Source: Myxococcota bacterium (GTDB taxonomy: Bacteria; Myxococcota_A; UBA9160; JAFDDA01). From it: a stretch of 64,000 nt of DNA. The notes below the pieces were generated by a model that saw nothing but the letters and a program-made list of their open reading frames with translations, did no database searches and was not told where the DNA came from. The stretch covers positions 4,320,001 through 4,384,000 of the forward strand of contig OZ245817.1 of NCBI GenBank assembly GCA_965228475.1, written 5' to 3'. The position numbers were made by a program, and so were the translations under genes. Of this stretch, positions 41,908-63,833 are shown one piece after another (position 1 is the first letter of the stretch; each line of letters opens with the position of its first letter).

Positions 41908-42041
41908 CGGATCTGGCCCCCGTGTTCAGCAGCGCCGACGGCGCTGACGCTCAGCGCTGCACCGCCGAGACCGACGCCAGAATCCTACCACGCAACACTT
42001 GGGCACGAGCCTGTCGCGTCCGCTGTAGTGCTTCGCTAGGC
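41908..42041 (-). repeat. Degenerate attC (main family; both cores eroded)
   Basis: Central part matches the family; ends read cggatctggcc and gctaggc. Confidence 0.8.
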
Positions 42042-42467
42042 GGCACGCTCTTCACGCGATGAGCCCACTAGCAAAGAGCCCGCGAGGCAGGACCCGCTCG
42101 TGAAGGCTGCACCAACGAGCTGCTCGAGGCGCTCGAAGAGCCCCGGCGGTTCCGCCCAGTAGACGGAGGTGAAGGCGAGGACGACGTAGAGCACCGCAGG
42201 CACGAGGACCCACCTCCTTGGGTGCGTAGACTCGACGAGGTATGCGGTGAGACCACCAACGCCGATTGCAATGACGGCCTCGGGAAGACCTAGGACGATC
42301 GGGGAGAGCAAGGCGAACGAGAGCTCACTCTTGTACGTGATGCCCTCGACGAGGCGAGCCCAAGGCATCGAAAGCCAGAACATGGCCCACCGCGAGAGAA
42401 GACACGCGCCGACACCGACAAGAACGTTCCTTGCATGGACGCGACTGACTACCACCGCGATGCCCAA
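42036..42467 (-). CDS. Cassette: membrane protein
   Basis: Hydrophobic ORF filling the inter-attC space. Confidence 0.65.
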   Translation of the reverse strand: MGIAVVVSRVHARNVLVGVGACLLSRWAMFWLSMPWARLVEGITYKSELSFALLSPIVLGLPEAVIAIGVGGLTAYLVESTHPRRWVLVPAVLYVVLAFTSVYWAEPPGLFERLEQLVGAAFTSGSCLAGSLLVGSSREERAA

Positions 42468-42596
42468 CGGAATGGGCGCTCAGCTGCCACCAACACGCTG
42501 ACCGCCAGCGGCGCGGCAACCCCGTCCCAGTGCCGGAAGGCTACCAGACTTGGTTCGAACCCGGTGTTGGTGGTCAGCTGCAGCGCCTTGTTGGGC
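42462..42596 (-). repeat. attC, divergent type
   Basis: gcccaac...cagctg/cagctg...gttgggc. Confidence 0.85.
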
Positions 42597-42749
42597 AGCA
42601 TGCGCAACCACGGTCTCAGCCGATCGCACTTGAGAATGCGAGGCCCCACCGCCACGATTCAACGACGGCTTTGCGCCGTTGGCAGGCGCTCGACTTCAAG
42701 CATCTCGGCAAGTAGCTTGAGTGCGATGACCGAGCTCGGCAAGTCTCCG

Positions 42750-43268
42750 ATGGTTGGCAACCGCATTGTCGTTACCGGCATGGCCGGTGCAGGCAAGAGT
42801 ACTTTCTCGCGGACGCTGTCGACGAAGACTGGCCTTCCGGTCATCCATCTCGACCTCCATAGCTGGAATCCAGGCTGGCTTCGGGTGCCCCAGGGCGAGT
42901 TCCTCGAGAAACAACGAGTCCGGCTTGCTGGGGATCGGTGGATCGTCGACAGCAACGACGTCGATGACGACCTCCTGGTCGAGCGCGCAGACACACTCGT
43001 GATCCTCTCCACGCCTTGGTGGATCTGCTCGTGGCGGGCTTTCAGGCGCGGACTACGGAGACCTCGTGGTGCTCAACTGCCCGACGGTTGCGACGAATCG
43101 CTCTCGCAGCGGCTCCGAGATGAATGGGGAATCGTATGGCGCAACTGGCGGAACCGGAAGACAGTGCCCGAACGTGACCGTGCTCTTGCCTCGCACTGCC
43201 GTGGGTTCATGCAGGTCCACGTCTTGAGTTCGAAGCGAGAGGCGGCCGACTTCGCGGAATGTATCTGA
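42750..43268 (+). CDS. Cassette (inverted): adenylate kinase-like / FlaR-like P-loop protein
   Basis: RIVVTGMAGAGKST, LPVIHLD, WNPGW. Confidence 0.8.
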   Translation: MVGNRIVVTGMAGAGKSTFSRTLSTKTGLPVIHLDLHSWNPGWLRVPQGEFLEKQRVRLAGDRWIVDSNDVDDDLLVERADTLVILSTPWWICSWRAFRRGLRRPRGAQLPDGCDESLSQRLRDEWGIVWRNWRNRKTVPERDRALASHCRGFMQVHVLSSKREAADFAECI

Positions 43269-43319
43269 GGGGCGGCGTTGGGCCGAGAACGGACGGGCGC
43301 AGAATGAACTCTCGATGCT

Positions 43320-43454
43320 GCCGAACGGATCAGGTCTTCAGCTGCGCCCAACAGCGCTGACCGCCAACGCCGGGGCACGACGTCCGCCGCCAGGATGGCA
43401 CCACGAAGCGATCGGAGCGAGCTGCTGGGCGTCCGGTTCAACCGCCTGTCAGGC
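43320..43454 (-). repeat. attC, divergent/degenerate
   Basis: gccgaacggatcaggtcttcagc...gtcaggc. Confidence 0.7.
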
Positions 43455-44207
43455 CGCCGGATCCGATGGCTCGCCCGCGGGAGTCGCATCCGGTGGCGAA
43501 ACAGTCAGAACGATCTTGCCGGACTCGGAGGCGGTTTGGAGAAGGCGCAGCTGGAAGAGGCCCGGGTTCTTGTCAAAGACTCGCGCCGCGTTTGCCAAGC
43601 TCCGAAGTGCGGCGGTCTCTCCGCGTGCTCGCTCGAGGCCCGCCTGCGCTTCCTGCCTGGCACGGGCGGTTTGCGAGAACGCCTCTTTGAGAGACCCCGG
43701 GAACATGATGTCCTTGATCGAAATCGATCGAAGTTCGAGACCCAGCGCCCTCGCCGAAGGTTCGACCTCGACTTGGAGCCTCGCAGAGAGGTCGGCGCGA
43801 GACTGGAGGATTTCTTCGATCGGCTTCTCGCCAATGGCGCCCCGAAGGGCCGCCTGTGCCTTGGCGTAGAGCGATTCCTCGTAGCTGGCAGATTCCAAGG
43901 TGGCTGCCTTCGGGTCCGAGACCCGAACTTCAAGGAGTAGACTCACTTTCAGTGAGACGCCATCCGACGACAGCAGTTCTTGGCCCGGAATCGTGATGAT
44001 CCGGGGCCGCGCCTCAAGGAGCTGTATGGAGGTCAGGGGCACGAAGGTCCAGTAGCTACCCGGGGAAAGGACCCCTGCGAACTTTCCTCGGACGAAGCGG
44101 ACCGCATGTTGGTACTCGAAGACGGTAATGCGGCGGATGACCATCGAGAAGCCCGCGAGAAAGATGGCGAGCAACAGCGCGAATCCGAGAAAGCTCCAGA
44201 AGGTCAT
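43449..44207 (-). CDS. SPFH/band 7 (slipin-like) protein
   Basis: GQELLSSDGVSLKVS, IKDIMFPG, ERARGETAALRSLANAAR; AGGAG RBS. Confidence 0.88.
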   Translation of the reverse strand: MTFWSFLGFALLLAIFLAGFSMVIRRITVFEYQHAVRFVRGKFAGVLSPGSYWTFVPLTSIQLLEARPRIITIPGQELLSSDGVSLKVSLLLEVRVSDPKAATLESASYEESLYAKAQAALRGAIGEKPIEEILQSRADLSARLQVEVEPSARALGLELRSISIKDIMFPGSLKEAFSQTARARQEAQAGLERARGETAALRSLANAARVFDKNPGLFQLRLLQTASESGKIVLTVSPPDATPAGEPSDPAA

Positions 44208-44434
44208 ACGTGAATCTCCTCGGACCGAGCCTCAAGGGGGCGCAGACTGGAGGCGGGAACCCGAAGCTCACAAGGCCCCCAAAACTGCTGCGTTGCCGCT
44301 GCCCCCCTGAGACCGGCTTTTGGGATTCGAACCCGAGGCTTTCGCCCACCCGAGGGAGGGCAATGCACGGAACGCGGCATGAGATTCATGATGCGCCGCT
44401 GCCGTCTCCCAGACGGGATAATACCAAGGAGTTC

Positions 44435-44536
44435 AGGGCGCTGACACTCAGCGCTGCACCGCCGTGATTGAGGCCAGGATCCTGCCACGACACTTCGGGA
44501 GAGCCCTTGGCGCCGGCTTCAAGGCCTTGGCTGAGC
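44435..44536 (-). repeat. Truncated attC (main family)
   Basis: Matches from agggcgctgacactcagc onward; L'/R' end missing. Confidence 0.75.
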
Positions 44537-44547
44537 GGCGATGCAGC

Positions 44548-45063
44548 CTATCCGCGCGGAGCGTGCCGAGAGCGCTGCTGCGAGCCCAACCACCGCGCGA
44601 TCGCGGGTGCGTGGAAGGTGAGGACGTAGCCAATGAGGAGCTCAGCAACCGCCGAGACTCGATACGGCCATACAGTTGAGGGATCCGGATCTGGGCCGGG
44701 CTCTACGTTTCCCACGATCCAATCCGCCGAGAGGTACGCCAGATAGAGAAAGCCCGAGACGAAGTAGAACAAGCCGACGAGCGTCACGACGTTCTCGAGT
44801 GTGAGATAGCTCGACTCGTCGGAGCGCTCAGCCCTTGGCGGGCGCCCGAACAACGAAGCGGCAAGTGAGTACCGCCCGAAGATCAACGAGAACCCGATGC
44901 CAAGGGACGCGAGTAGCGGACCCAGGGTGACGAACAACCCGAACGCACCGATCGGCCCATGGACAACCTGCATGAAGAAGAAGCTCGCCAGGGAGATCGA
45001 CTTGTACAGAAGGAAGAAGCCACACAGGGAGATCGCGACGACACCGAGGTCATATCGATGCAA
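44548..45063 (-). CDS. Cassette: membrane protein
   Basis: Four TM helices, GGAGG RBS. Confidence 0.7.
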   Translation of the reverse strand: MHRYDLGVVAISLCGFFLLYKSISLASFFFMQVVHGPIGAFGLFVTLGPLLASLGIGFSLIFGRYSLAASLFGRPPRAERSDESSYLTLENVVTLVGLFYFVSGFLYLAYLSADWIVGNVEPGPDPDPSTVWPYRVSAVAELLIGYVLTFHAPAIARWLGSQQRSRHAPRG

Positions 45064-45083
45064 GTCACCTCCTCACCTTCGCC

Positions 45084-45215
45084 GCCCAACGGATCAGGCC
45101 TTCAGCAGCGCCGAGGGGCTGACACTCAGCGCTGCACCACCACGACCGACGCCAGGATCCTACCACGGCACTTTGTACCCGAGCCGATGGCGGCCGCTGC
45201 AAGGCCCTACTAGAC
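45084..45215 (-). repeat. attC (main family, degenerate R'')
   Basis: gcccaacggatcagg...aaggccctactagac. Confidence 0.85.
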
Positions 45216-45668
45216 AGCCGGCCAACCAACCGGCCACTCCTCTATGTCTCGGAGCTCTGATGTGTAGGCAGCCTCGTTCGTCGCGACCTTGCTCTGGCAG
45301 TGAATCGCGCAGCGATGCATGGTATCGGTTCGGACTGACCGTCCGTCATTGAAGTACTGCTCGTTCGTCGTCCGATCCTGCCATCGAATCTCGCTAAACG
45401 AGAGCCTCGCCTCTAACGAGGCCTGAGTAAGGGCAGCTATCGGGATTCGGTTTGCCTCGAGATCCTCGAGAAGCCACAAGCGAAGCTCCTCCGCGATGGA
45501 GAGCTTAGGAATTGACCTACCCTCGAACGCACAGCTCCCAGACAGCACGTCCACCCGGATCGTGCCCGAGCCCAGCTCGACGAGTCGAGGCTTGGAACTG
45601 ATGAGACGCCAGCCACAGAACATGTGGCAGATGGTGTCTGCAGTGTGTTGGAGTCGTTTCCTTCGCAT
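45210..45668 (-). CDS. Cassette: hypothetical protein
   Basis: ORF fills cassette. Confidence 0.7.
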   Translation of the reverse strand: MRRKRLQHTADTICHMFCGWRLISSKPRLVELGSGTIRVDVLSGSCAFEGRSIPKLSIAEELRLWLLEDLEANRIPIAALTQASLEARLSFSEIRWQDRTTNEQYFNDGRSVRTDTMHRCAIHCQSKVATNEAAYTSELRDIEEWPVGWPAV

Positions 45669-45684
45669 CGGGTCTCGCCCGGCG

Positions 45685-45814
45685 GCCTAACGGATACGGC
45701 GCTCAGCTGCAGCCACGGCCATGAAGTTCAGCGGAGTGCCTAAGTGGAACCCAAATAGTACCAGGGTCCGATTGGACGGAGCTATTGGCTGTCAGCTACA
45801 GCACCTTGTTGGGC
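45685..45814 (-). repeat. attC, divergent type
   Basis: gcctaacggatacggcgctcagctg...cagctacagcaccttgttgggc. Confidence 0.85.
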
Positions 45815-45821
45815 GGCCGCT

Positions 45822-46313
45822 TTACTTGGGCGGATGAAAGCCAACCCGCCGCGCTACGGATCGAGGGCTTCGGAACAGAAAGATACCGATCGCGATGCCC
45901 ACCACCCCGGAGACCAGAGATCTGACGGATACAGCGGTCATATACCCGTGAAGATCGCTGGAGAGGACATTCATTAGGAGCGAAACGATGCCGACTGCGA
46001 GTGATATTCCAGAAGACACGAGTAGCCAGAGCCCTGCAATCGCAATGCCCGCGACGACCAGGGACTCCGTAGAGAGCTCCCCAGGGCCGGCGCTGGGAAA
46101 AGCACGGCGTGCTAGCTGCTCGTTCCTGACGACCAGATAGAGTCCAGGCACTGCCACGACAATCGCAACTACGACTGACCCACCGATCTGGAAGAAGAGC
46201 ATTTCGGAGTTCGAGCTTGTGTACTGGAACGCAGAACTGAGCGCAGAGAACACTCCCGACAAGGTGACATGCAGACCCACAAGAATGAAGCCGAGTCTCG
46301 CAGTATCGAACAC
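45822..46313 (-). CDS. Cassette: membrane protein
   Basis: Four TM helices. Confidence 0.7.
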   Translation of the reverse strand: MFDTARLGFILVGLHVTLSGVFSALSSAFQYTSSNSEMLFFQIGGSVVVAIVVAVPGLYLVVRNEQLARRAFPSAGPGELSTESLVVAGIAIAGLWLLVSSGISLAVGIVSLLMNVLSSDLHGYMTAVSVRSLVSGVVGIAIGIFLFRSPRSVARRVGFHPPK

Positions 46314-46319
46314 CGAGCC

Positions 46320-46453
46320 GCCTAACGGATCAGGCCTTCAGCGGCGCCGAGGGCGCTGACTCTCAACGCCGCACTACCGAGACCGACGCCAGAATCCTAC
46401 CACGCAGCGATTGGGCAGACGCCCTTGGCGTCTGCTGCAAGGCCTTGTTAGGC
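46320..46453 (-). repeat. attC (main family)
   Basis: gcctaac...gttaggc. Confidence 0.93.
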
Positions 46454-46474
46454 GGCGGATGGGCCAAGCAACGA

Positions 46475-47029
46475 TCACGACAGGTCTGGCATTCCGGCGG
46501 CGATGTTCCAAGCGGCGATCGCAGCTCCTGCCAGCAGCAGAACCGCATGCGTACCCGAGTGAGGCGAAGCTGCGAGAACGAGAGCTCCCCCCGCCGTGAC
46601 AGCGCTGGGAAGGTTCTTGGTCACGAGCAGCGGGTCGCCGAAGGCCAGAGACGGCCCAACCATCGATGTAGTTGCGCTGGCGGCGACGATGCCAAAGAGA
46701 ACACGGTGTCGGTCGAAGTAGTGACTTCGGAGGTCCGTGCCACCAGGCGGAGGAAAAGCGAGGTGTGCAAGGACGTAGAGCAAAACGGGACTCGCCAGGA
46801 TGAGGAGCAGCTGGCCAAAACCCCAGACCGCATGCGAACGAAGCTCCCACGCGTGCCACCAGACCTGGATCAATGTCAGGAGTATCAGGCTCGCGAGGAG
46901 CAGCGGCTGCCAAGCGGCTACCGTTACCTGCCGTTCCAGCACCGCATGGGAGAGTCCGGACAGGATCTTGGCCACGCCTAGGCCGACGACGATCGACTCC
47001 AGGACCATGATGAACTCGAAGAGCGACAC
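46475..47029 (-). CDS. Cassette: membrane protein (family of 34638-35195)
   Basis: MSLFEFIMVLESIVVGLG...LRSHYF. Confidence 0.75.
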   Translation of the reverse strand: MSLFEFIMVLESIVVGLGVAKILSGLSHAVLERQVTVAAWQPLLLASLILLTLIQVWWHAWELRSHAVWGFGQLLLILASPVLLYVLAHLAFPPPGGTDLRSHYFDRHRVLFGIVAASATTSMVGPSLAFGDPLLVTKNLPSAVTAGGALVLAASPHSGTHAVLLLAGAAIAAWNIAAGMPDLS

Positions 47030-47038
47030 AGCTCCGCC

Positions 47039-47171
47039 GCCTAACGGATCAGGCCTTCAGCGGCGCCGAGGGCGCTGACAATCAGCGCTGCACCACTGCG
47101 GCCGACGCCAGAATCCTACCACGCCACTTTGGGCCCGAGCCCTTGGCGTCCACTGTAAGGCCTTGTTAGGC
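47039..47171 (-). repeat. attC (main family)
   Basis: gcctaac...gttaggc. Confidence 0.93.
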
Positions 47172-47612
47172 GGCTGCCCCCCGAAGTTCAAAGAAAGCCA
47201 AGACCGCAATGAATGCCAGAATGCCTCTCCCAAAGGCGAGGTATGCGGCCGCTGACAAAGCGACAAGCCAAGGCGGCGGCTCCTCTCCCGACTCGCCGAA
47301 TCCTGAGGCGAACCCTTCGGCGAAGTCGCGGGCGGGCCGCAGCCCTGTGTAGATGAGCGATACGGCAAGCGGGATCCCCGCCCAGGCGCGCCCCGCGCAG
47401 AGCAGTAGGGCGAGCCCGGCGTGGAGAATGAACCTTGCAGCGATTCCGAACTTCACGCCCATTGCTCGGCCTCGAGCACGGGGCGAATCGTCCTCGGGTT
47501 GGACCAATGGGAGCGCCGTGAGCCCCGGCGCCTCGACCAACGCGACAACGAGAAAGAGAGCAACGAGCCACAGCGGCGCGCCCCAGATCTCCCACCCGAT
47601 GGTTTCGGTCAC
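47166..47612 (-). CDS. Cassette: membrane protein
   Basis: Stop TAA lies inside R''. Confidence 0.7.
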   Translation of the reverse strand: MTETIGWEIWGAPLWLVALFLVVALVEAPGLTALPLVQPEDDSPRARGRAMGVKFGIAARFILHAGLALLLCAGRAWAGIPLAVSLIYTGLRPARDFAEGFASGFGESGEEPPPWLVALSAAAYLAFGRGILAFIAVLAFFELRGAAA

Positions 47613-47619
47613 CGAGGCC

Positions 47620-47752
47620 GCCTAACGGATCAGGCCTTCAGCGGCGCCAAGGGCGCTGACTCTCAGCGCTGCACCACCGCGGCCGACGCCAGAATCCTAC
47701 CACGGCACTTTGAGCCCGAGCCCTTGGCGTCCGCTGCAAGGCCTTGTTAGGC
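47620..47752 (-). repeat. attC (main family)
   Basis: gcctaac...gttaggc. Confidence 0.93.
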
Positions 47753-48148
47753 GGCTGGCTGGGCTGAGGCTCTCGCAGCCAATAGACGAGAAATCGTTGC
47801 AGCTACCGGAGCGACTGCGGAGGCAAGGAGCGCCCAGTGAGACAACGTAAGGTCACTTGGGCCGAGCAACCCAAGGTTGGAAGTGAATATCGGAATGTCC
47901 CGGATCGCTACGAGAACAAATACGACAATGAATGCCGCAAACAACAGGCGCCCATCTGAGCGAGCAATTGCCACACTCAGGCTCAGCTGGATACAAACAG
48001 ATACGACCGAGATTCCGACGATGAGGTCTGGAAATCCGAGAGCGCGAAAGGAGAGCACTCGGCAGAACTCGTTCGCAGCTGCCAGCGCACCCGCAGCGGA
48101 TGCAACGAGCCGCACCTTGTGACCGTAGTTGTGCCCCGCGGTGCTCAC
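47747..48148 (-). CDS. Cassette: membrane protein
   Basis: Stop TAA lies inside R''. Confidence 0.65.
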   Translation of the reverse strand: MSTAGHNYGHKVRLVASAAGALAAANEFCRVLSFRALGFPDLIVGISVVSVCIQLSLSVAIARSDGRLLFAAFIVVFVLVAIRDIPIFTSNLGLLGPSDLTLSHWALLASAVAPVAATISRLLAARASAQPAA

Positions 48149-48157
48149 GGCAAAGCT

Positions 48158-48291
48158 GCCTAACGGATCAGGCCTTCAGCAGCGCCGAGGGCGCTGACTC
48201 TCAACGCCGCGCCACCGAGACCGACGCCAGAATCCTACCACGCAGCAATTGGGCACGAGCCCTTGGCGTCTGCTGTAAGGCCTTGTTAGGC
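48158..48291 (-). repeat. attC (main family)
   Basis: gcctaac...gttaggc. Confidence 0.93.
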
Positions 48292-48297
48292 GGCTGG

Positions 48298-48645: not shown

Positions 48646-48654
48646 CGAGTTGCC

Positions 48655-56894: not shown

Positions 56895-57509
56895 CTAGGG
56901 TTTGGCCGGACGCTGGTCGATGAGGCCCAGGCGAGCCACTCGGCTCTGGGGCTCGAGCACGGCTCCGGGCGCGATCACCGCATTCGCTCCAATCCGTGAC
57001 CCGTCGCCGATGAGCGCGCCGAACTTCTCAACCCCGGTATCGACGGTTGCGTCGCGCCAGACGAAGCGAATCCGCTTCTCGGTCAGTTCGTTTCGGTAGT
57101 TCGCGACCTTCGCACCGGCTTCGACGTTCACATCAGTACCGAGAATCGAGTCACCCACGAAACTGAGGTGAGCGACCTTGGAGGCTCTCAGCATAAACGT
57201 GGATTTCAGCTCGCACGCAGGCCCAACAATGCATGCCTCACCCACGAAGACGCCGCCTCGAAGGTAGGCGCCCGCCGCGACGAGTGAGTTCGCGCCCACG
57301 ATTGCAGGGCCCTTGACCACCGCGCCACGCTCAATCTCTGCGGATCTGTGGACGGCAACGTCGCCTTCGATCTCGAAGTCGGCGGGTAGCCCTCGGATCG
57401 CGGCTGCGACTAGCTCCGCCGACGTCGAGGTGGGCAGCCATGGATCTCCTTCGACATGGCCGAACGGGCTCGACACCCATTCAGAGGCGAAGTCTGCAAT
57501 GCGGATCAT
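56895..57509 (-). CDS. Cassette: hexapeptide-repeat transferase (GlmU/LpxA-like)
   Basis: Left-handed beta-helix repeats, HLSFVGDSILG, KFGALIGD. Confidence 0.85.
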   Translation of the reverse strand: MIRIADFASEWVSSPFGHVEGDPWLPTSTSAELVAAAIRGLPADFEIEGDVAVHRSAEIERGAVVKGPAIVGANSLVAAGAYLRGGVFVGEACIVGPACELKSTFMLRASKVAHLSFVGDSILGTDVNVEAGAKVANYRNELTEKRIRFVWRDATVDTGVEKFGALIGDGSRIGANAVIAPGAVLEPQSRVARLGLIDQRPAKP

Positions 57510-57524
57510 GCTGTGAACCGTGCC

Positions 57525-57658
57525 GCCCAACGGATCAGGCCTTCAGCAGCGCCGAGGGCGCTGACTCTCAGCGCTGCACTACCGAGACCGACGCTAGGAT
57601 CCTACCACGCGGCGTTTGGGCAGATGCCCTTGGCGTCTGCTGCAAGGCCTTGTTAGGC
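57525..57658 (-). repeat. attC (main family)
   Basis: gcccaac...gttaggc. Confidence 0.93.
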
Positions 57659-57670
57659 GGCCGGGCGCGC

Positions 57671-58312
57671 CTAGGCCGAGCTGCTCACGAAGGTCGCGAG
57701 GTTCCATGTGCCGTGAGCAAAGACCGCAGGAACGACGCTCCTAGTGTGGACTCGAGCAGCCGACAGGACTGCACCGAGAGCAGCCAGCGTGAGAAGAGTG
57801 GTGGGGTTCTCGGCGCCATGTAAGAGCAGCCAGGGGACGAGGGCCAGAACAGAAGCGAGGACTTCACCTCCAACCGCTGGTGCAAGAATGGACGTTGCGA
57901 AGCCTCGGTAGAGGAACTCTTCGATGGCAGGGCCAACTACGATAGCCACGATCGCCAGAAGAAGAGGCGCAGCTTCTGCGTTGAGCGAAGCAGTGCGTTC
58001 TGAGCTGGAGCCGATCGCTGTGCAAGCGAGCCACGTGAGCCCGCCCGCCAGCGACCAGAGCACTACGCCCCGCGCCGATACGTGGCGGACGGCGAAAACC
58101 GCCCGAACGCTGCACCACTGCGCGCCAACGAGTGCGGCTGCGACGACAGCCATGGCGCCACTGACGACGATGGAGACCAGGAACACGTCCGACCCGCTCC
58201 CGCCGACCAACCCGGAGAGAATGCTTGGGGTCAGCAACAGGAGAGCGAAGTGGGCGGCCACAACGCTGGCGACGGCGAGAAGACGACGATGCTGTGGTTC
58301 GTGCGCGGTCAA
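57671..58312 (-). CDS. Cassette: CPBP (CAAX/Abi) intramembrane protease
   Basis: PAIEEFLYRG, H, AHGTWN motifs. Confidence 0.85.
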   Translation of the reverse strand: MTAHEPQHRRLLAVASVVAAHFALLLLTPSILSGLVGGSGSDVFLVSIVVSGAMAVVAAALVGAQWCSVRAVFAVRHVSARGVVLWSLAGGLTWLACTAIGSSSERTASLNAEAAPLLLAIVAIVVGPAIEEFLYRGFATSILAPAVGGEVLASVLALVPWLLLHGAENPTTLLTLAALGAVLSAARVHTRSVVPAVFAHGTWNLATFVSSSA

Positions 58313-58318
58313 TAGGCC

Positions 58319-58452
58319 GCCTAACGGATCAGGCCTTCAGCAGCGCCGAGGGCGCTGACTCTCAACGCCGCACTACTGAGACCGCCGCCAGAATCCTACC
58401 ACGCAGCGTTTGGGCATGAGCCCTTGGCGTCTGCTGCAAGGCCTTGTTGGGC
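58319..58452 (-). repeat. attC (main family)
   Basis: gcctaac...gttgggc. Confidence 0.93.
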
Positions 58453-58470
58453 GGCGGCAGGAGATGACAC

Positions 58471-58824
58471 TCACGCATCCTCTTCCTGGAACGCGGCGAT
58501 CTCCCGTAAAAATTGATCGAGCTTCGGATCGAAGAGGCCCTTCACGAGGCAGAGGATCGAGACCGTGGTGGTGTGGTCATCCCACTCCTCAGGTCTCGTG
58601 CGAGAGGCATTGATGTTGAGCAACCCCTGGCCGGCCTTCCTTGGACCCTCCCAGATTGGATCAACCGTGTAGGTCAGAAAGAGCTGACGCCCATACGATG
58701 CGCGGCGGGACTCAAGCAACCACTGCTCATCGCACCACCAGTCGGGCGAAGAGTCCTCGATCGAGACGAGCTCCCAACCTCCGTGGACCAGTCCAGAGAG
58801 AATTCTCTCCTTGTACTTCGCCAC
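58471..58824 (-). CDS. Cassette: hypothetical protein
   Basis: ORF fills cassette. Confidence 0.7.
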   Translation of the reverse strand: MAKYKERILSGLVHGGWELVSIEDSSPDWWCDEQWLLESRRASYGRQLFLTYTVDPIWEGPRKAGQGLLNINASRTRPEEWDDHTTTVSILCLVKGLFDPKLDQFLREIAAFQEEDA

Positions 58825-58832
58825 GCGCCGCC

Positions 58833-58965
58833 GCCCAACGGATCAGGCCTTCAGCGGCGCCAAGGGCGCTGACACTCAGCGCTGCTCCACCGTGGCCGAC
58901 GCCAGAATCCTACCACGACACTTTGAACCCGAGCCCTTGACGTCCGCTGCAAGGCCTTGTTGGGC
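58833..58965 (-). repeat. attC (main family)
   Basis: gcccaac...gttgggc. Confidence 0.93.
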
Positions 58966-58982
58966 TGCAAGGCGAGAACGCC

Positions 58983-59366
58983 CTAGAACAAGGCGAGCAC
59001 CCGAGGGCCGAACACGAGAAGCCCAATGAAGACTGCCCCGATGGCCGCGATGAGAACTGCACCAGCTGCGACGTCCTTCGCGCGCTCTACCATTGGATGG
59101 AACTCAGGGGACGCGACGTCACAGAGGGACTCGAAGGCCGTATTGAGGGCCTCGGCGCTCCACACCGCAACGATGGCGAGGGTTAGAGCGAGCCACTCAC
59201 CTCGGCCGACCTGAAAATAGAGACCGGCCGCCACGACTACGACTGAGGCCAGCGCGTGGATCCAGGCGTTGTGCTGAGACCTCAGCATGACGCCGATGCC
59301 ACGCAACGCGTACTGAATGCTGCGGAGGCGCTCGGTTAGGCTGAATCGTCCCAGCTTGCTGCCCAA
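58983..59366 (-). CDS. dgkA: Cassette: diacylglycerol/undecaprenol kinase family
   Basis: QHNAWIH, AEALNTAFESLCD, AKDVAAGAVL. Confidence 0.88.
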   Translation of the reverse strand: MGSKLGRFSLTERLRSIQYALRGIGVMLRSQHNAWIHALASVVVVAAGLYFQVGRGEWLALTLAIVAVWSAEALNTAFESLCDVASPEFHPMVERAKDVAAGAVLIAAIGAVFIGLLVFGPRVLALF

Positions 59367-59493
59367 CGGATCAGGCCTTCAGCGGCGCCAAGGGCGCTGA
59401 CACTCAGCGCTGCGCCACCGTGGCCGACGCCAGGATCCTACCACGCCACTTTGGGCCCGAGCCCTTGGCGTCCGCTGTAAGGCCTTGTTAGGT
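59361..59493 (-). repeat. attC (main family)
   Basis: gcccaac...gttaggt. Confidence 0.93.
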
Positions 59494-59544
59494 GGCTGCC
59501 CGAGGGAACTCAGGCTCAACTCGAGCGTAAGCGGAGAACTCACC

Positions 59545-59778
59545 TTAGACGAGAAGAAGTGCCGCTATTGCGAGAAGGGTTGCTCCCCCCAGGAACACAC
59601 ATACGATTTCTTGACGGGCCGAGACTGCCTTAGGTGGGTAGTGTCCGAGCGAAACGACGCGCAAGACAACGAGACCAACGAAACTGCAGGCGCCTATGAC
59701 CCCCGCGGCGGCCGCCTCTAGCAGACCAACTAGTGCCTGGAGCACGTAGACGACGAGTTCGAGCAGATCGATGAGCAC
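59545..59778 (-). CDS. Cassette: small membrane protein
   Basis: Hydrophobic, SLGHYP. Confidence 0.5.
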   Translation of the reverse strand: MLIDLLELVVYVLQALVGLLEAAAAGVIGACSFVGLVVLRVVSLGHYPPKAVSARQEIVCVFLGGATLLAIAALLLV

Positions 59779-59826
59779 GAGACGGCACCAGTGGTGTCAG
59801 CGCAGCGTCCGATAGTCGCCTTTGCC

Positions 59827-59960
59827 ACCTAACGGATCAGGCCTTCAGCAGCGCCGAGGGCGCTGACTCTCAACGCCGCACCACCGAGGCCGACGCCAGA
59901 ATCCTACCACGCAGCGTTTGGGCATGAGCCCTTGGCGTCTGCTGATAGGCCTTGTTAGGT
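59827..59960 (-). repeat. attC (main family)
   Basis: acctaac...gttaggt. Confidence 0.93.
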
Positions 59961-59969
59961 GGCTGAGCT

Positions 59970-60317
59970 CTAGCGGCTCGACGAGGCTGACACGAGAGCG
60001 AACACCGAAAGGCACCCGAGCCCCATGAGGAAATAGCCCGCGCGATACGCTCGACGGTGCCACGGTGACATGCTGGACGACCCGAAAGAGATCCGAACTC
60101 CAGACCGGACGACGGATAGCTTGGCGACCAAGAAGAGCGCGACACCTACGAAGAACGAACCAAGAGCGAGGTACGAGACGTCGCGGGGAGCTTGGTGTGC
60201 GTTGACGACGAACAGGGCCAAGACGAGGCCTACGGCTAGCGGCATCAAGACGATGAAGAAGTTGGCGAGAGCTTCCCGCTGGCCCACGGTGACGAACTCC
60301 TTCGTTCGACCAGCCAC
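59970..60317 (-). CDS. Cassette: membrane protein
   Basis: Three TM helices. Confidence 0.65.
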   Translation of the reverse strand: MAGRTKEFVTVGQREALANFFIVLMPLAVGLVLALFVVNAHQAPRDVSYLALGSFFVGVALFLVAKLSVVRSGVRISFGSSSMSPWHRRAYRAGYFLMGLGCLSVFALVSASSSR

Positions 60318-60449
60318 CTAACGGATCAGGCCTTCAGCGGCGCCGAGGGCGCTGACACTCAGCGCTGCACCACCGCGGCCGACGCCAGGATCCTACCACG
60401 CCGCATTTGGGCAGGAGCCCTTGGCGTCCGCTGCAAGGCCTTGTTAGGC
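60316..60449 (-). repeat. attC (main family)
   Basis: acctaac...gttaggc. Confidence 0.93.
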
Positions 60450-60902
60450 AGCACGACTCGAAGTCTCTTGCCACATGCGAAAGAGGATGAAGGCTGCGAC
60501 GCACGCCATCAGGTCTGCGCCCACGAGCTGAACGGGCCTGGGTTCAGGCCACCATGAGAGGGCTGCATGGAAGCCGAAGAGCGAGAACCGCGGAAGCACA
60601 GCCATGGGTTCTGGGGAGAGGCGGAGGAAGATGGAGAAGATCAGTCCCGTAGAGAACTCGTAACGAAACCCACCGAGCACCACGGCGGGCACCGAGAGAA
60701 CCTGCACGACAAGCGAGCCAAGGATACCGGAACGAGAACGATAGAGACGAACGCCGAAGGCGAGACCGGCGGCGAAGAGCGAGAGCTGGAGAACAAGGAG
60801 AACCCAATAGAGCGGATGCGCCTTGGCAGGCACGGCGACCAATGACGCGGCGACAAGACCGAGGCCTAGCGTAGAGCCGAGGCACTGCTCAAGTGCGATC
60901 AC
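60444..60902 (-). CDS. Cassette: membrane protein
   Basis: Stop in R''. Confidence 0.65.
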   Translation of the reverse strand: MIALEQCLGSTLGLGLVAASLVAVPAKAHPLYWVLLVLQLSLFAAGLAFGVRLYRSRSGILGSLVVQVLSVPAVVLGGFRYEFSTGLIFSIFLRLSPEPMAVLPRFSLFGFHAALSWWPEPRPVQLVGADLMACVAAFILFRMWQETSSRAA

Positions 60903-60935
60903 ACGAACTAAGCGGCCATGACGTTCCAGCGTGCT

Positions 60936-61069
60936 GCCTAACGGATCAGGCCTTCAGCAGCGCCGAGGGCGCTGACCTTCAACGCCGCACTACCGAGACC
61001 GACGCCAGAATCCTACCACGCAGCGTTTGAGCATAAGCCCTTGGCGTCTGCTGGAAGGCCTTGTTGGGC
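60936..61069 (-). repeat. attC (main family)
   Basis: gcctaac...gttgggc. Confidence 0.93.
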
Positions 61070-61075
61070 TGCGCG

Positions 61076-61333
61076 CTACCGAGCAGCTGAAGGAAAGCCC
61101 CGAAGCAACCCGGCCACGCTCAAGTCCTCATCGAGGTCCGGCCAATGAATGCCCGCACCGTCTCCGAGGAACTCGTAGTTCTCTCTCTGCTCGACGGTTG
61201 CCCGAGCAAGCCTTGGAAACCAAGCAAGGGGAGCAGCAACACGACGGCCATCCGCAAGAACGACCATGAGCTCATCTTCTGAGAAAGAGAGCTCCTTAAC
61301 GCGGGGATCAACGCTCGGCTGCGAAGAACTCAT
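61076..61333 (-). CDS. DUF2442 protein (putative antitoxin)
   Basis: LADGRRVAAPLAWFPRL, GIHWPDLDEDLSV. Confidence 0.88.
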   Translation of the reverse strand: MSSSQPSVDPRVKELSFSEDELMVVLADGRRVAAPLAWFPRLARATVEQRENYEFLGDGAGIHWPDLDEDLSVAGLLRGFPSAAR

Positions 61334-61550
61334 GCCAAGCCTCCTCGAACTGGTCACGGTGCTCCTCAACAAGACGCTCGATCCGACGTAGCTCGTGAGC
61401 AGCGAACCCGACGGAAGATGCTAGCGCGACAGGCCGAACCCAGAACTTGCACAAGGCTTGCTCACGCTGAACATGGATGTGGACCGGCTCTAACCCCTCG
61501 TTTGAAAAGAAGAAGAACCGATAAGGCCCGATTCGTTTAACCGTGGGCAT
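61308..61550 (-). CDS. DUF4160 protein (putative toxin)
   Basis: GPYRFFFFSNE...EPVHIHV...KFW...AWHEFF. Confidence 0.88.
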   Translation of the reverse strand: MPTVKRIGPYRFFFFSNEGLEPVHIHVQREQALCKFWVRPVALASSVGFAAHELRRIERLVEEHRDQFEEAWHEFFAAER

Positions 61551-61578
61551 GGGATGAGCCTACCGAAGCCGCCGCGCT

Positions 61579-61711
61579 GCCCAACGGATCAGGCCTTCAG
61601 CGGCGCCAAGGGCGCTGACACTCAGCGCTGCACCACCGTGGCCGACGCCAGAATCCTACCACGGCACTTTGAGCCCGAGCCCTTGGCGTCCGCTGCAAGG
61701 CCTTGTTAGGC
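61579..61711 (-). repeat. attC (main family)
   Basis: gcccaac...gttaggc. Confidence 0.93.
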
Positions 61712-61722
61712 GGCACGCCTGC

Positions 61723-61977
61723 TCACTCGTAGCCCTTGCCGGCCAGAAGGAACTGAGCGAACTGCCGCCAGAGATTCGAGGTGTCAATCCCAGTGGACGC
61801 CCCGAAATCTGAATCTTCTGCCCAGGCGTGACCGGCTTCGAGAAACTCCTCGATCGTGCCGCTCTCCCACCCCGACGCACCGGCGGCGCAGTCTCGCTCC
61901 ATGGCCTTCGCGAACGCCAAGAAAGTCCGAGCGTCCCGAACGCCAGCAACAAGGTCTTCGGGCCTGCCCGATGCCAC
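61723..61977 (-). CDS. Cassette: small hypothetical protein (possible immunity-like family)
   Basis: WESGTIEEFLEA...W...WRQFAQFLLAGKGYE. Confidence 0.7.
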   Translation of the reverse strand: MASGRPEDLVAGVRDARTFLAFAKAMERDCAAGASGWESGTIEEFLEAGHAWAEDSDFGASTGIDTSNLWRQFAQFLLAGKGYE

Positions 61978-61985
61978 TTCGTGCC

Positions 61986-62119
61986 GCCTAACGGATCAGG
62001 CCTTCAGCAGCGCCGAGGGCGCTGACTCTCAACGCCGCACTACCGAGACCGACGCCAGAATCCTACCACGCAGCAGTTGGGCAGGAGCCCTTGGCGTCTG
62101 CTGCAAGGCCTTGTTAGGC
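61986..62119 (-). repeat. attC (main family)
   Basis: gcctaac...gttaggc. Confidence 0.93.
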
Positions 62120-62413
62120 GGCGGGCCCCGGCGCCTCGAACTCTCGGAGAATGGCCTTCAACTTCTCTTCTCGAAGCAGCAGGGAGTAGTTGAGGGCGGC
62201 GATGCCGAGAAGAGATGCCGCTGCGGGGAGACTCGAGAAGCTCAGTACCCGAACTCCAGTGAAGCGTTCGAGCGCGAGAACGCCGAACACCAAACCAATC
62301 ATCTCGGCCGCGGAGAGTAGGAACCAAGCCATATCTTCAGGTGCGTAGTAGCGGGGCGAGCTAGGCGAGAGGAGATAGAGCCGGTAGAACAAATAGCGGT
62401 ATCCACGAAGCAC
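62114..62413 (-). CDS. Cassette: small membrane protein
   Basis: YRYLFYRLY, two TM helices; stop in R''. Confidence 0.65.
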   Translation of the reverse strand: MLRGYRYLFYRLYLLSPSSPRYYAPEDMAWFLLSAAEMIGLVFGVLALERFTGVRVLSFSSLPAAASLLGIAALNYSLLLREEKLKAILREFEAPGPAA

Positions 62414-62424
62414 CCGTTCCCGCC

Positions 62425-62558
62425 GCCTAACGGATCAGGCCTTCAGCAGCGCCGAGGGCGCTGACTCTCAACGCCGCACTACCGAGACCGACGCCAGAAT
62501 CCTACCACGCAGCAGTTGGGCACGAGCCCTTGGCGTCTGCTGATAGGCCTTGTTGGGC
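62425..62558 (-). repeat. attC (main family)
   Basis: gcctaac...gttgggc. Confidence 0.93.
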
Positions 62559-63023
62559 GGCTGGAACAATCCGCTGGCTTACGCTGACTACAACAGGCGA
62601 GTCCTCACTGAGAGTCAGAAACACGAGGAAGCGACTGGTTAGCCACGACAGGTACCTGCGAAATCTCGTTCCGGGCGAGGGCGTCCCTGGGCCGAACTGA
62701 GAACTCAGGGCTGACTCGTACTCACCGAATGCCAGCCCAGCCTCCTCATCGCTGGCGAAGGAGAGGTTGACGCCGACTGAGATCACGGAGCCGTCTCTGC
62801 AGAAGTAGGCGATCTCGGCTTCCCGATTGCCATGAGTTCCCGAGAACATCAAGATCGAGTCGCCGATCTCTGACGGCGATGAACCCTTGAAGCGCGACCC
62901 TTCGCGCCGCTCAGCGTCGAGGATCGCAGCGCAATCTTCGCCCAAACCGACGCTGCGCAGTTGATAGCTCTCGCCGTTATCGGATACGAGCATGGCCAGG
63001 GCTACTGTGAGTTCTCGAATCAA
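62502..63023 (-). CDS. Cassette: hypothetical protein reading into its attC
   Basis: No stop before R''; terminates inside attC. Confidence 0.55.
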   Translation of the reverse strand: MIRELTVALAMLVSDNGESYQLRSVGLGEDCAAILDAERREGSRFKGSSPSEIGDSILMFSGTHGNREAEIAYFCRDGSVISVGVNLSFASDEEAGLAFGEYESALSSQFGPGTPSPGTRFRRYLSWLTSRFLVFLTLSEDSPVVVSVSQRIVPAAQQGLSADAKGSCPTAAW

Positions 63024-63028
63024 GCGCT

Positions 63029-63161
63029 GCCCAACGGATCAGGCCTTCAGCGGCGCCAAGGGCGCTGACACTCAGCGCTGCGCCACCACGGCCGACGCCA
63101 GAATCCTACCACGACACTTTGAGCCCGAGCCCTTGGCGTCCGCTGAAAGGCCTTGTTAGGC
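63029..63161 (-). repeat. attC (main family)
   Basis: gcccaac...gttaggc. Confidence 0.93.
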
Positions 63162-63167
63162 GGCGGG

Positions 63168-63689
63168 CTATTCGACCTCTGGCGTTCGGGAAACCTCTCT
63201 TCCGCCTTCATAGGTAACGGCGGTTCGGGCCGATCCGTCCGGCTCGTAGAACCGCCACACGCCGACCCGTTTGCCGACATCATGACGGCCATCCGACTTG
63301 AGGGAACCATTGGGGTGCCAAGTGCGAAAGACGCCATGCAGCTCGTTGGAACGCCACTCGGCGAGGATCTTCTTCGTTCCGTTCGGGTACCAGTGCGTGG
63401 CCAACTGTTCGCCTGAGCCGAGGTGCCGCCTTTCGGATTCGGCGCGGCCATTCGAGTCAAAGGACACCCACGAACCAGACTCGACTCCCTTGCGGTGCCA
63501 GCCAATCGTTTGAAGGTGACCGGAGTCGTCGAAGTGCAGGAGTTGGCCCTCCAGCGAACCGTCCGGCCAAGTACAGCCAATTGTGCCGTTCGTCTCGTGT
63601 AGCGAGGTTCCGCTCGGGCAGCGAAGAACTGCCTCACTTGCACATCCTACGGCGAGGATTGAGAGAGTGACCGCGAGCGAACGAATGAT
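63168..63689 (-). CDS. Cassette: MORN-variant repeat (YwqK-like) lipoprotein
   Basis: WYPNG/WHPNG/FYEPDG repeats; frame open up to IIRSLAVTLSILAVGC. Confidence 0.7.
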   Translation of the reverse strand: MIRSLAVTLSILAVGCASEAVLRCPSGTSLHETNGTIGCTWPDGSLEGQLLHFDDSGHLQTIGWHRKGVESGSWVSFDSNGRAESERRHLGSGEQLATHWYPNGTKKILAEWRSNELHGVFRTWHPNGSLKSDGRHDVGKRVGVWRFYEPDGSARTAVTYEGGREVSRTPEVE

Positions 63690-63699
63690 ACTTCCCGCC

Positions 63700-63833
63700 G
63701 CCTAACGGATCAGGCCTTCAGCAGCGCCGAGGGCGCTGACATTCAACGCTGCACTACCGAGACCGACGCCAGAATCCTACCACGCAGCATTTGGGAATGA
63801 GCCCTTGGCGTCTGCTGCAAGGCCTTGTTGGGC
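63700..63833 (-). repeat. attC (main family)
   Basis: gcctaac...gttgggc. Confidence 0.93.

Follow-up and report, generated by a model that had tools for sequence, protein, structure and literature searches.

Along an integron cassette array of a Myxococcota bacterium, the unpaired centre of nearly every attC carries a nine-base box of the form TGnTAnnnT on the cassette strand, and this strand-specific pattern is conserved across the order. Judging from sequence comparison, we read the box, with a probability of roughly 0.6, as a -35-less sigma-70-type extended -10 promoter for the next cassette. The attC would then be dual-purpose, with the arms R''/L'' and L'/R' folding as the recombination site and the unpaired centre carrying an extended -10 promoter (TGnTAnnnT, here TGGTAGGAT) on the cassette-sense strand, with no -35 element. 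The housekeeping RNA polymerase would recognise the box in double-stranded attC, initiate about 7 nt past it and transcribe the 3' half of the site before entering the next cassette, so that leaders would be about 71–101 nt long. Every cassette would carry a promoter for its downstream neighbour, so that the array would be independent of a single promoter at the attI end; if true, expression of the stored genes may not hinge on a lone upstream promoter. We found no description in print of an attC-centre promoter of this kind.

Results

A profile built from the repeats located 39 attC-like sites (nhmmer, E<1e-5) in the window, by which we mean the whole 64,000-nt stretch analysed, and these sites with their 39 cassettes form an array whose cassette strand is the minus strand (Table 1). 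Intact attCs measure 123–139 nt, without insertion, and copies within the genome are 90–100% alike over the full site. The minus-strand open reading frame (ORF) is the largest in 35 of the 39 cassettes, and minus-strand cassette ORFs have four Pfam matches. The array continues to attI and intI, which lie only a short way beyond the window end (TIGR02249, 422.6 bits against a cut-off of 265), with intI upstream of attI and the cassettes on the same strand. With intI and the cassettes thus co-directional, no classical divergent Pc within intI can drive the array; the dependence on Pc that the original prediction took as its background does not suit this locus, and promoters within attCs would matter here for the same reason.

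The 9-mer TGGTAGGAT occurs 34 times in the window against a shuffle expectation of 0.05, every time on the minus strand and between 41982 and 63782. All 34 sites that score above 110 bits in the profile search hold it exactly, so the count is no artefact of motif-based selection. These are the main-family sites, for which the minus-strand pattern had been predicted from examples such as plus-strand atcctacca at 46394–46402, a copy that is indeed present. TGnTAnnnT fits 36 of the 39 window attCs, always on the cassette strand, and the details foreseen for the remaining sites also hold: the divergent 42462 (TGGTAGCCT) and 45685 (TGGTACTAT) sites keep the pattern, as do two relics in partial attC left halves, and the box is weaker at 43320 (TGGTGCCAT), in the truncated 44435 site (TGGCAGGAT) and at 56726, which has none at the canonical place. 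The 16.7 kb between attCs hold one sense-strand TGnTAnnnT, TGGTATTAT at 44418–44426, directly downstream of the truncated 44435 attC and the only one outside attCs in the array, and the sole plus-strand match in the array, at 55281, falls within an attC. A two-hexamer promoter scan of 57000–64000 found none. In the second attC cluster of the genome all seven sites fit TGnTAnnnT, five as TGGTAGGAT, one as TGGTAGAGT and one as TGGTAGGTT.

Table 1 Positions of the array, its attCs and related boxes (window coordinates unless stated).
Feature	Position	Strand	Box	Box position	Remark
integron cassette array	41906..63836	minus			39 attCs and 39 cassettes; nhmmer
intI	genome 4384365-4385318	minus			
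attC, main family	63700..63836	minus	TGGTAGGAT	63774-63782	
attC, main family	63029..63164	minus	TGGTAGGAT	63103-63111	
attC, main family	62425..62561	minus	TGGTAGGAT	62499-62507	
attC, main family	61986..62122	minus	TGGTAGGAT	62060-62068	
attC, main family	61579..61714	minus	TGGTAGGAT	61653-61661	
attC, main family	60936..61071	minus	TGGTAGGAT	61010-61018	
attC, main family	60316..60452	minus	TGGTAGGAT	60390-60398	
attC, main family	59827..59962	minus	TGGTAGGAT	59901-59909	
attC, main family	59361..59495	minus	TGGTAGGAT	59435-59443	
attC, main family	58833..58967	minus	TGGTAGGAT	58907-58915	
attC, main family	58319..58455	minus	TGGTAGGAT	58393-58401	
attC, main family	57525..57661	minus	TGGTAGGAT	57599-57607	
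attC, divergent	56726..56862	minus			23.6 bits; without TGnTAnnnT; TGGGTGCCGT at canonical place, CGGCATACT further downstream
attC, main family	56205..56341	minus	TGGTAGGAT	56279-56287	
attC, main family	55686..55821	minus	TGGTAGGAT	55760-55768	
attC, main family	55165..55301	minus	TGGTAGGAT	55239-55247	
attC, main family	54664..54800	minus	TGGTAGGAT	54738-54746	
attC, main family	54172..54308	minus	TGGTAGGAT	54246-54254	
attC, main family	53722..53857	minus	TGGTAGGAT	53796-53804	
attC, main family	53303..53439	minus	TGGTAGGAT	53377-53385	
attC, main family	52862..52998	minus	TGGTAGGAT	52936-52944	
attC, main family	52347..52483	minus	TGGTAGGAT	52421-52429	
attC, main family	51804..51940	minus	TGGTAGGAT	51878-51886	
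attC, main family	51243..51378	minus	TGGTAGGAT	51317-51325	
attC, main family	50683..50819	minus	TGGTAGGAT	50757-50765	
attC, main family	50027..50163	minus	TGGTAGGAT	50101-50109	
attC, main family	49564..49700	minus	TGGTAGGAT	49638-49646	
attC, main family	49147..49283	minus	TGGTAGGAT	49221-49229	
attC, main family	48655..48791	minus	TGGTAGGAT	48729-48737	
attC, main family	48158..48294	minus	TGGTAGGAT	48232-48240	
attC, main family	47620..47755	minus	TGGTAGGAT	47694-47702	
attC, main family	47039..47174	minus	TGGTAGGAT	47113-47121	
attC, main family	46320..46456	minus	TGGTAGGAT	46394-46402	example in the original prediction
attC, divergent	45685..45817	minus	TGGTACTAT	45755-45763	30.9 bits
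attC, main family	45084..45217	minus	TGGTAGGAT	45157-45165	114.3 bits
attC, truncated	44435..44529	minus	TGGCAGGAT		degenerate box; 3' arm lost
attC, divergent	43320..43442	minus	TGGTGCCAT		degenerate box; 42.3 bits
attC, divergent	42462..42599	minus	TGGTAGCCT	42538-42546	25.3 bits
attC, main family	41906..42044	minus	TGGTAGGAT	41982-41990	last intact attC; 115.0 bits
box in decayed attC	40590..40598	minus	TGGTACTGT		part of left half only; 57 nt upstream of ORF 40216-40533 (minus)
box in decayed attC	39431..39439	minus	TGGTAGCCT		left arm AACAAGGCGCTGC kept, right arm lost
box	38205..38213	minus	TGTTAGGAT		82 nt upstream of ORF 37530-38123 (minus); attC profile match weak, not significant (E 0.27)
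box	36599..36607	minus	TGGTAGGGT		31 nt upstream of ORF 36056-36568 (minus)

Folding places the box outside the paired arms. Ten of the 34 main-family copies, folded as single strands, leave it mostly unpaired, and in a consensus fold of 60 distinct attCs all 23 pairs lie in the arms, 15 of them with compensatory changes, while alignment columns 33–117, box included, are unpaired. Hairpin pairing, which had been named as a possible full explanation of the motif, is therefore no explanation for it: the arms evolve via compensatory changes and the centre is held as primary sequence. Loop bases beside the box vary within the main family, as had been noticed (alignment columns 55–69 and 92–113), and columns 70–80 are invariant in all 34 copies. 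The invariant block exceeds the box, at about CGTGGTAGGATYCTGGCGTCGG (~22 nt).

The near-invariance of this 22-nt block, in attCs that are 90–100% alike over their whole length, would also be expected if the box were functionless, inherited from a master attC and homogenised by recent spread or gene conversion, and homogeneous attCs are known in chromosomal integrons (PMC8876359, partial text). Conservation beyond the genome makes this explanation quite improbable. We surveyed 60 intI loci of the order, finding attCs by their R''/R' cores and arm duplex energy only, with the centre unused, and built a source-weighted profile of 60 distinct 124–140-nt attCs drawn from the window and 19 other genomes of the order, 20 sources in all. 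Its central positions read T.82, G.97, G.80, T.88, A.81, n, n, n, T.93, which is the extended -10 pattern; the position after TA prefers G/C (0.58 bit), the next two are low, and the positions flanking the box are low except for a G (.84) four bases past it. TGnTAnnnT is present in 40 and TAnnnT in 51 of the 60. Across divergent attCs, each position is conserved as TGnTAnnnT would have it. Between genomes the arms have diverged freely, with compensation (15/23 pairs), and elsewhere the centre is unconserved, yet five to six box positions still stand at.80–.97, and the middle bases vary (GGA, GCA, GCC, GTC, GAG, CCG and others), so there was time enough for change.

The pattern is bound to one strand and to this lineage. 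Of 74 attCs of the order, 43 have TGnTAnnnT on the top strand and 1, probably mis-oriented, has it on the bottom strand, against 217 of 7,400 shuffles; bar that single site, the orientation rule leaves only two arrangements relative to intI. Among 48 attCs found by the same procedure beside more distant IntI genes in other phyla, the pattern occurred twice on the top strand and once on the bottom. A search of metagenomes by the right arm alone gave 6 distinct attC-like sequences in 30 stretches, with the box in 5 of the 6, 80–85 nt from the 3' end. The pattern is not universal within the order: 31 of the 74 attCs do not fit it, and a ~155-nt attC class (GTGGTATACGG, no T at the last place) and eight attCs of one genome (CGTTAGTCT, no TG) count against a promoter.

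These data also bear on whether the box is a lineage-specific recombination or host-factor signal with an incidental likeness to a -10, such as a variable terminal structure sequence read by the integrase, a single-strand-binding partner or another DNA-binding protein, with a possible effect on folding, on the choice of strand or on the rate of excision. Such a signal on the folded bottom strand would predict strand specificity equally well, and specificity to the order rather than to attCs in general would suit it, as would the nearly constant distance of 49–56 nt between the box and the 5' end of R'' in the 124–140-nt classes. A longer binding site would also account better than a bare -10 for the CTGGCG block and for the G kept at -13. 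However, the conserved positions are exactly those of TGnTAnnnT with the middle three free, which an unrelated protein would have to copy by chance, and the box shifts relative to the arms between classes, its end lying 36 nt from the attC 3' end in the 115-nt class versus about 67–77 nt in the 124–140-nt classes. The box is also kept in decayed attCs that lost an arm (only two cases), and the host places the same pattern upstream of ordinary genes. We hold such a signal to be unlikely, though worth keeping in view.

That host genes also use such boxes, as had been supposed, is borne out in the genome outside the integron regions, where, of 365 TGnTAnnnT occurrences, 118 are found in sense and 8 in antisense no more than 200 nt upstream of a called gene, on crude gene calls from our own ORF/GC3 caller (at least 150 codons, GC3 at least 0.82, first ATG/GTG as start). 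One-base controls counted in the same way had no upstream-sense bias (TGnTCnnnT 113/6581, TGnTAnnnC 28/1227, TGGTAnnnG 17/1081). TGGTAGGAT itself has six copies outside the integron regions, four of them upstream of genes in sense. Before first-in-cluster tRNA genes, TAnnnT starts 12–27 nt ahead of the mature 5' end in 20 of 50, and 9 of these 20 begin with TAG. At -13 the host boxes upstream of genes have A 31, C 29, G 21 and T 8 times.

All the sequence-level tests agree with the original prediction of a -35-less extended -10 aimed at the next cassette. A promoter asks for neither the preferred G at -13 (.80) nor the CTGGCG block kept 1–2 nt past the box, which may have a second or different role. 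TAGGAT, moreover, agrees with the textbook -10 consensus, TATAAT, at only four of six places. Sigma-54 promoters have the consensus GG-N10-GC, and the main-family sequence TGGTAGGATTCTGGC, box and following TGGC together, does set GG and GC ten bases apart. However, 18 of the 60 distinct attCs match GG-N10-GC, 1 has an in-register TGC and 2 have TGGCA. The classes also differ by one base in their spacing to the TGGC block, and a sigma-54 promoter would leave the best conserved T, the ninth base of the box, unaccounted for, all of which makes this assignment scarcely credible.

For a sigma-70-type promoter in the attC centre, the predicted leaders run to 71–101 nt (median 77) in the 16 of 39 cassettes where a clear minus-strand ORF lies near the attC; from the attC at 62425..62561, a start near 62492 would place 79 nt of leader before the ORF that starts at 62413. 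Holoenzyme might instead bind the box with little productive transcription, acting as a pause or roadblock, a cassette insulator or an aid to melting the palindrome centre. The sequence evidence for this is the same as for a promoter, and the long G+C-rich inverted arms around the box could conceivably hinder promoter escape. Nothing in the sequence singles out such a role, though; a working promoter would be expected to yield just such leaders of 71–101 nt that pass directly into ORFs, and terminator-like sites in the array are at chance level (7 versus 6.6 in shuffles). We regard unproductive binding as improbable. The idea that a start inside the attC frees the next start codon from the attC hairpin disagreed with simple folds of 16 cassettes, in which the unpaired share of the start region was 0.26–0.57 in short transcripts versus 0.34–0.71 in full ones.

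Discussion

Sedentary chromosomal integrons, such as those with the ~120-bp Vibrio cholerae repeats, share with this array the R''/R' cores, imperfect inverted arms and extra bases on one arm, as well as homogeneous copies along a long array beside an integron integrase and mostly unknown small ORFs (PMC8876359, partial text). The variable centre of their attCs is usually called sequence-free and their cassettes promoterless, whereas here a strand-specific TGnTAnnnT is conserved across the order and the integrase is co-directional with the array.

Cassette-borne promoters (cmlA, qac, qnrVC, toxin–antitoxin and gene-less Vibrionaceae cassettes) are likewise intra-array and free distal cassettes from Pc. 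In Vibrio sp. DAT722 a hybrid promoter bridges the attC junction, its -35 lying in the attC of cassette 20 and recurring in other attCs and its -10 being unique to one cassette (PMC2945992, partial text), and in Vibrio fischeri one gene-less cassette has starts within its attC (PMC11014356, partial text). Those promoters belong to single cassettes, whereas the complete -35-less pattern described here occupies the recombination site itself in almost all attCs and recurs in many genomes. Group IIC-attC introns, too, are elements at attC that supply a promoter for the downstream cassette, one that arrives with the inserted intron (PMC3001079, partial text). Here, by contrast, the putative promoter would be part of the attC itself.

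The box shares with extended -10 promoters the TG at -15/-14, the T, A and T at -12, -11 and -7, the free middle bases and the lack of a -35 at 16–18 nt, an element that this TGn class of sigma-70 promoters does without. It differs from them in lying inside a recombination hairpin, in its preference for G at -13 and in the CTGGCG around the expected start.

Treponema integrons have an 'inverted' arrangement in which the integrase is co-directional with the cassettes, and here, too, intI precedes attI and the array and shares their strand. Of the 21 loci of the order that yielded attCs, 13 have this co-directional layout, and an association with the box, suggestive only since related genomes are not independent, appears in that TGnTAnnnT is commoner in co-directional loci (34 of 42 attCs, 13 loci) than in classical divergent ones (9 of 32, 8 loci).

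Results

The host genome is a single contig of 5.0 Mb, and the window (overall G+C 68%) contains a chromosomal integron array with a G+C of 61–65%, compared with approximately 70% in the flank (Table). A profile search, with the profile built from the repeats themselves, detects 39 attC-like sites at E<1e-5, every one on the minus strand. Main-family attCs start with GCC[T/C]AAC and finish with GTT[A/G]GG[C/T], which correspond to the RYYYAAC/GTTRRRY inverted cores. These cores, combined with arm pairing, recover 34 attCs in the window and 74 in integrase loci fetched from other genomes of the host's bacterial order. On the cassette strand, unpaired bases are more numerous in the 5' arm than in the 3' one, and orienting attCs by this asymmetry matches the coding strand of the cassettes in the window. 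That strand is the minus strand, which holds the largest ORF in 35 of 39 cassettes, mostly beginning 3–35 nt past the preceding attC. Only minus-strand ORFs gave Pfam matches above the cut-off, four among 33 cassette ORFs (diacylglycerol kinase, Rce1-like protease, hexapeptide transferase and SPFH). The GC3 of cassette ORFs is about 0.6–0.77, well under the 0.85–0.95 of flanking host genes, which fits a foreign or relaxed composition.

The integrase gene intI (TIGR02249, 422.6 bits with a cut-off of 265) is located just outside the window, approximately 530 nt past the first attC. Approximately 180 nt after the intI stop, and before the first cassette ORF, there is a GTTGGGC site that is likely the attI crossover. 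The integrase gene thus precedes the array and shares its strand, unlike the classical integron, in which intI is divergent. The stretch holding the GTTGGGC site is less G+C-rich, and a TAGACT hexamer is found approximately 45 nt before the site.

Coordinates of features (window positions unless the genome is named)
Feature	Position	Strand	Remark
Integron array	41906–63836	minus	
intI	genome 4384365–4385318	minus	
Stretch holding the GTTGGGC site	genome about 4384177–4384365		just past the window end
Second attC cluster	genome 3906319–3917867, outside window	minus	7 attCs; no integrase nearby
Example of CTGGCG block following the box	62487–62497	minus	main-class attC
attC of the variant found in four genomes	56726–56862		
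Plus-strand TGnTAnnnT	55281	plus	within an attC
Truncated attC, then box TGGTATTAT	44418–44529	minus	3' arm lost; degenerate box TGGCAGGAT
Box TGGTATTAT	44418–44426	minus	211 nt before the SPFH-domain ORF
Putative old part of the array	36000–41906		
Box in decayed attC	40590–40598	minus	
Box in decayed attC	39431–39439	minus	
Box before ORF	38205–38213	minus	82 nt before minus-strand ORF
Box before ORF	36599–36607	minus	31 nt before minus-strand ORF
Duplicated cassettes	48655–49146 and 54172–54663; 55165–56725		one pair 99.4% identical
hrcA-dnaK-dnaJ cluster	11608–16403	minus	

Extended -10 promoters have TG at positions -15/-14, followed by TAnnnT, with the sense strand of the gene they serve as the non-template strand. 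The original prediction was that attC sites carry such a promoter, aimed at the next cassette, and the pattern TGnTAnnnT (hereafter the box) is indeed found in the middle of the approximately 65 nt separating the attC arms. The window contains 34 copies of the 9-mer TGGTAGGAT, on the minus strand only, against an expectation of 0.05, and 36 of the 39 attCs fit TGnTAnnnT, always on the cassette strand. All 34 attCs scoring >110 bits carry TGGTAGGAT, hence the count is not produced by motif-based picking, and we confirm the observation as far beyond chance. The original readings of five divergent attCs and two relics also held when the sequence was re-read. The attCs of the second cluster contain TGGTAGGAT (5 of 7), TGGTAGAGT (one) and TGGTAGGTT (one).

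Elsewhere in the array the pattern is rare. The 16.7 kb of cassette bodies hold a single sense-strand copy, TGGTATTAT directly after the truncated attC, and there is only one plus-strand copy in the whole array. One attC variant is seen in four genomes, namely that of the window and those of the order loci L064, L066 and L092. In three of the four the canonical box is degenerate and GGCATACT is found approximately 13 nt further downstream; in L064, GGCATACT occupies the canonical box place itself. This sequence may represent an alternative box. Cassette-like genes (PEMT/ICMT-type methyltransferase, glutathione transferase, RpiB and GFA family) continue on the minus strand beyond the last intact attC, together with small ORFs without a Pfam match, and this segment resembles an old, fixed portion of the array. 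Five TGnTAnnnT copies on the minus strand and zero on the plus strand are found in 36000–42000, although such few cases are anecdotal.

As the invariant block of the main family is longer than the box, the window alone cannot tell which bases matter, and we therefore turn to the order. An integron integrase is present in 105 of the 193 order genomes examined, and we sampled 60 of these intI loci (850 kb in total). The attC search used two core sites and the arm duplex energy, leaving the centre unused. Under this strict rule, 74 sites were found in 21 loci and none in the remaining 39 loci, many of which are short contigs. Oriented by the asymmetry of unpaired arm bases, the attCs show only two array layouts relative to intI, bar one site that we take as mis-oriented: divergent, in which the array precedes intI and uses the opposite strand (8 loci), and co-directional, in which the array is downstream of intI and both share a strand (13 loci).

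A central TGnTAnnnT is present on the cassette strand of 43 of these 74 attCs, compared with 217 of 7,400 shuffles, and on the opposite strand of one, the presumed mis-oriented site. The full pattern is missing from the other 31, which counts against a promoter reading. By layout, the box is found in 34 of 42 attCs of co-directional loci versus 9 of 32 in divergent loci, although these genomes are related and not independent. We further made a gap-free profile of 60 distinct sites of 124–140 nt, anchored on the T of TA and with sources weighted equally. It reads T (.82), G (.97), G (.80), T (.88), A (.81), G or C, two nearly free positions and T (.93), with low flanks except for a G (.84) four bases beyond the box. 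Position by position, the conserved bases of this order-wide profile are those of the extended -10 pattern. Boxes of the 115-nt attC class have the sequence GTGGTAGG[C/A]T or GTGGTAGCCT. They end at a distance of 36 nt from the 3' end, so the box does not keep a fixed position with respect to the arms. The approximately 155-nt class has GTGGTATACGG, without the last T, and eight attCs of one order genome read CGTTAGTCT.

Around more distant IntI genes the pattern is rare. A scan of named genomes returned IntI relatives that are all at ≤60% identity and spread over many phyla, and 80 loci around such genes served as an outgroup. The same rule found 48 attCs there, with the pattern on the top strand in two and on the bottom strand in one. 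A metagenome scan with 18 right-arm bases gave 30 stretches, of which 21 are unrelated chance matches and nine are attC-like loci with six distinct sequences, five of which have the box 80–85 nt from the 3' end.

When box conservation was checked against the predicted fold, as had been proposed with the original prediction, hairpin pairing did not explain the box. Ten of the 34 main-family copies were folded as single strands, and the box is mostly unpaired in them whichever strand is taken. The consensus fold of 60 distinct attCs, from the window and 19 other order genomes, has 23 pairs, which are confined to the R and L boxes plus their extension, with compensatory changes in 15; alignment columns 33–117, including the box, are unpaired. 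What is conserved is thus structure in the covarying arms and sequence in the unpaired box. A box that instead serves recombination or host-factor binding is compatible with the sequence evidence taken alone, and we consider such a role possible but unlikely.

Three further candidates were rejected. Pairing of the box GGAT with GATCC of the right-hand spacer does not hold, given that the middle of the box varies between genomes and the spacer is constant. A stop codon or mini-ORF at the box is contradicted by TAC replacing TAG in 29% of the weighted profile and by the unfixed base before TG, and a CsrA-type GGA loop motif by the lack of GGA in most box variants.

In all main-class attCs the box is followed, after 1–2 nt, by a CTGGCG block, with a shift of one base in this spacing between attC classes. 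The block pairs with nothing conserved in the consensus fold, has a G conserved at.84 between genomes, and counts against a promoter of the extended -10 type. Sigma-54 promoters have GG and GC ten bases apart, with TGC at -12, and the box and the following block might together be read as one. This is a weak candidate: among the 60 distinct attCs, GG-N10-GC is found in 18, but TGC in register in only one and TGGCA in two.

The host genome itself appears to use the pattern. Genes were called crudely by taking open frames of ≥150 codons and a GC3 of ≥0.82, which gave 2,911 genes and a coverage of 73%. Counting both strands, the genome has 365 copies of TGnTAnnnT outside the two attC regions. Of these, 118 are located upstream of a called gene (≤200 nt) in the sense orientation, compared with 8 in the antisense orientation, subject to the crude gene calls. 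Upstream-sense territory makes up approximately 2% of positions per strand, and one-base controls show no bias towards it (TGnTCnnnT 113 of 6,581, TGnTAnnnC 28 of 1,227, TGGTAnnnG 17 of 1,081). The 9-mer TGGTAGGAT has six copies outside the integron regions, four of them upstream in sense. Among TAnnnT hexamers in upstream regions, TAGGAT shares second place for the excess of sense over antisense copies (30 versus 16).

The tRNA genes have exact 5' ends, and TAnnnT starts 12–27 nt upstream in 20 of 50 first-in-cluster tRNA genes. Nine of these 20 boxes start with TAG; in several tRNA genes the box is preceded by TTGAC at a distance of approximately 17 nt, and in one there is TGGTATGCT without a -35. 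These upstream boxes indicate that the host -10 is TAnnnT, often TAGnnT, and that TGn boxes are in use. The G at -13 in the attC box is not a host preference, which counts against the promoter reading.

Within the array, a transcription start placed 7 nt after the box gives predicted leaders of 71–101 nt (median 77) in the 16 cassettes where the ORF start is clear. Minimum-energy folds of 16 leader pairs did not bear out the expectation that initiation inside attC would release the following start codon from the attC hairpin. A scan for two-hexamer -35/-10 promoters in 57000–64000 found none, and sites resembling intrinsic terminators (a G+C-rich hairpin and a T run) in the same region are at chance level, 7 versus 6.6 in shuffles, with none at an attC.

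Discussion

In the standard integron model, cassettes are promoterless and are expressed less the further they lie from Pc. A long chromosomal array is then mostly a silent store, with genes turned on by a move to first place. Here, we observe the anatomy of the box, its conservation and its usage in the host, and from these we infer transcription: the box would be an extended -10 promoter built into attC and pointing at the next cassette, to which we assign a probability of roughly 0.6. Whether attC in this whole, mostly uncultured order combines a recombination site with a portable promoter, with arrays expressed cassette by cassette, is in our judgement evenly balanced.

If so, each cassette insertion would put a promoter before the next cassette, whatever its distance from attI, and a promoter in the recombination site would overturn the standard model for the whole order. 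Every stored gene would be readable, the costs and benefits of long arrays would differ, and the order of cassettes would be less important. Another integron that captured such a cassette would also gain a promoter for whatever sits behind it. An attC promoter would also offer an explanation for integrons with the integrase facing the same way as the array, and it may have allowed, or followed from, co-directional integrons without a classical Pc.

Transcription within arrays has been described before. The passages of one review on cassette-borne promoters, and on the debate over attC as a terminator or translation barrier, do not mention a promoter inside attC (PMC8876359). Intra-array transcription is described as widespread in Vibrio sp. 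DAT722, in which one promoter bridges an attC junction with the -35 in attC and the -10 unique to one cassette (PMC2945992), whereas here TGnTAnnnT is found in 36 of 39 attCs. Other papers report promoters in gene-less cassettes, with starts within attC in one cassette (PMC11014356), and group IIC introns that bring promoters to attC sites (PMC3001079). The attC centre is treated as variable, with no box mentioned, in the sections seen of PMC8352920 and PMC12444791. Searches of the open-access and bioRxiv literature turned up no paper that reports a conserved promoter within attC sites.

Other features of the window

An Rfam scan of the window gave one tRNA only and no family at the attCs. The window also contains an hrcA-dnaK-dnaJ cluster; no CIRCE-like operator matches in the window at ≤3 mismatches. 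Several cassettes are duplicated (Table), and three adjoining cassettes of 519–521 nt each have a mutual identity of 88–95%.
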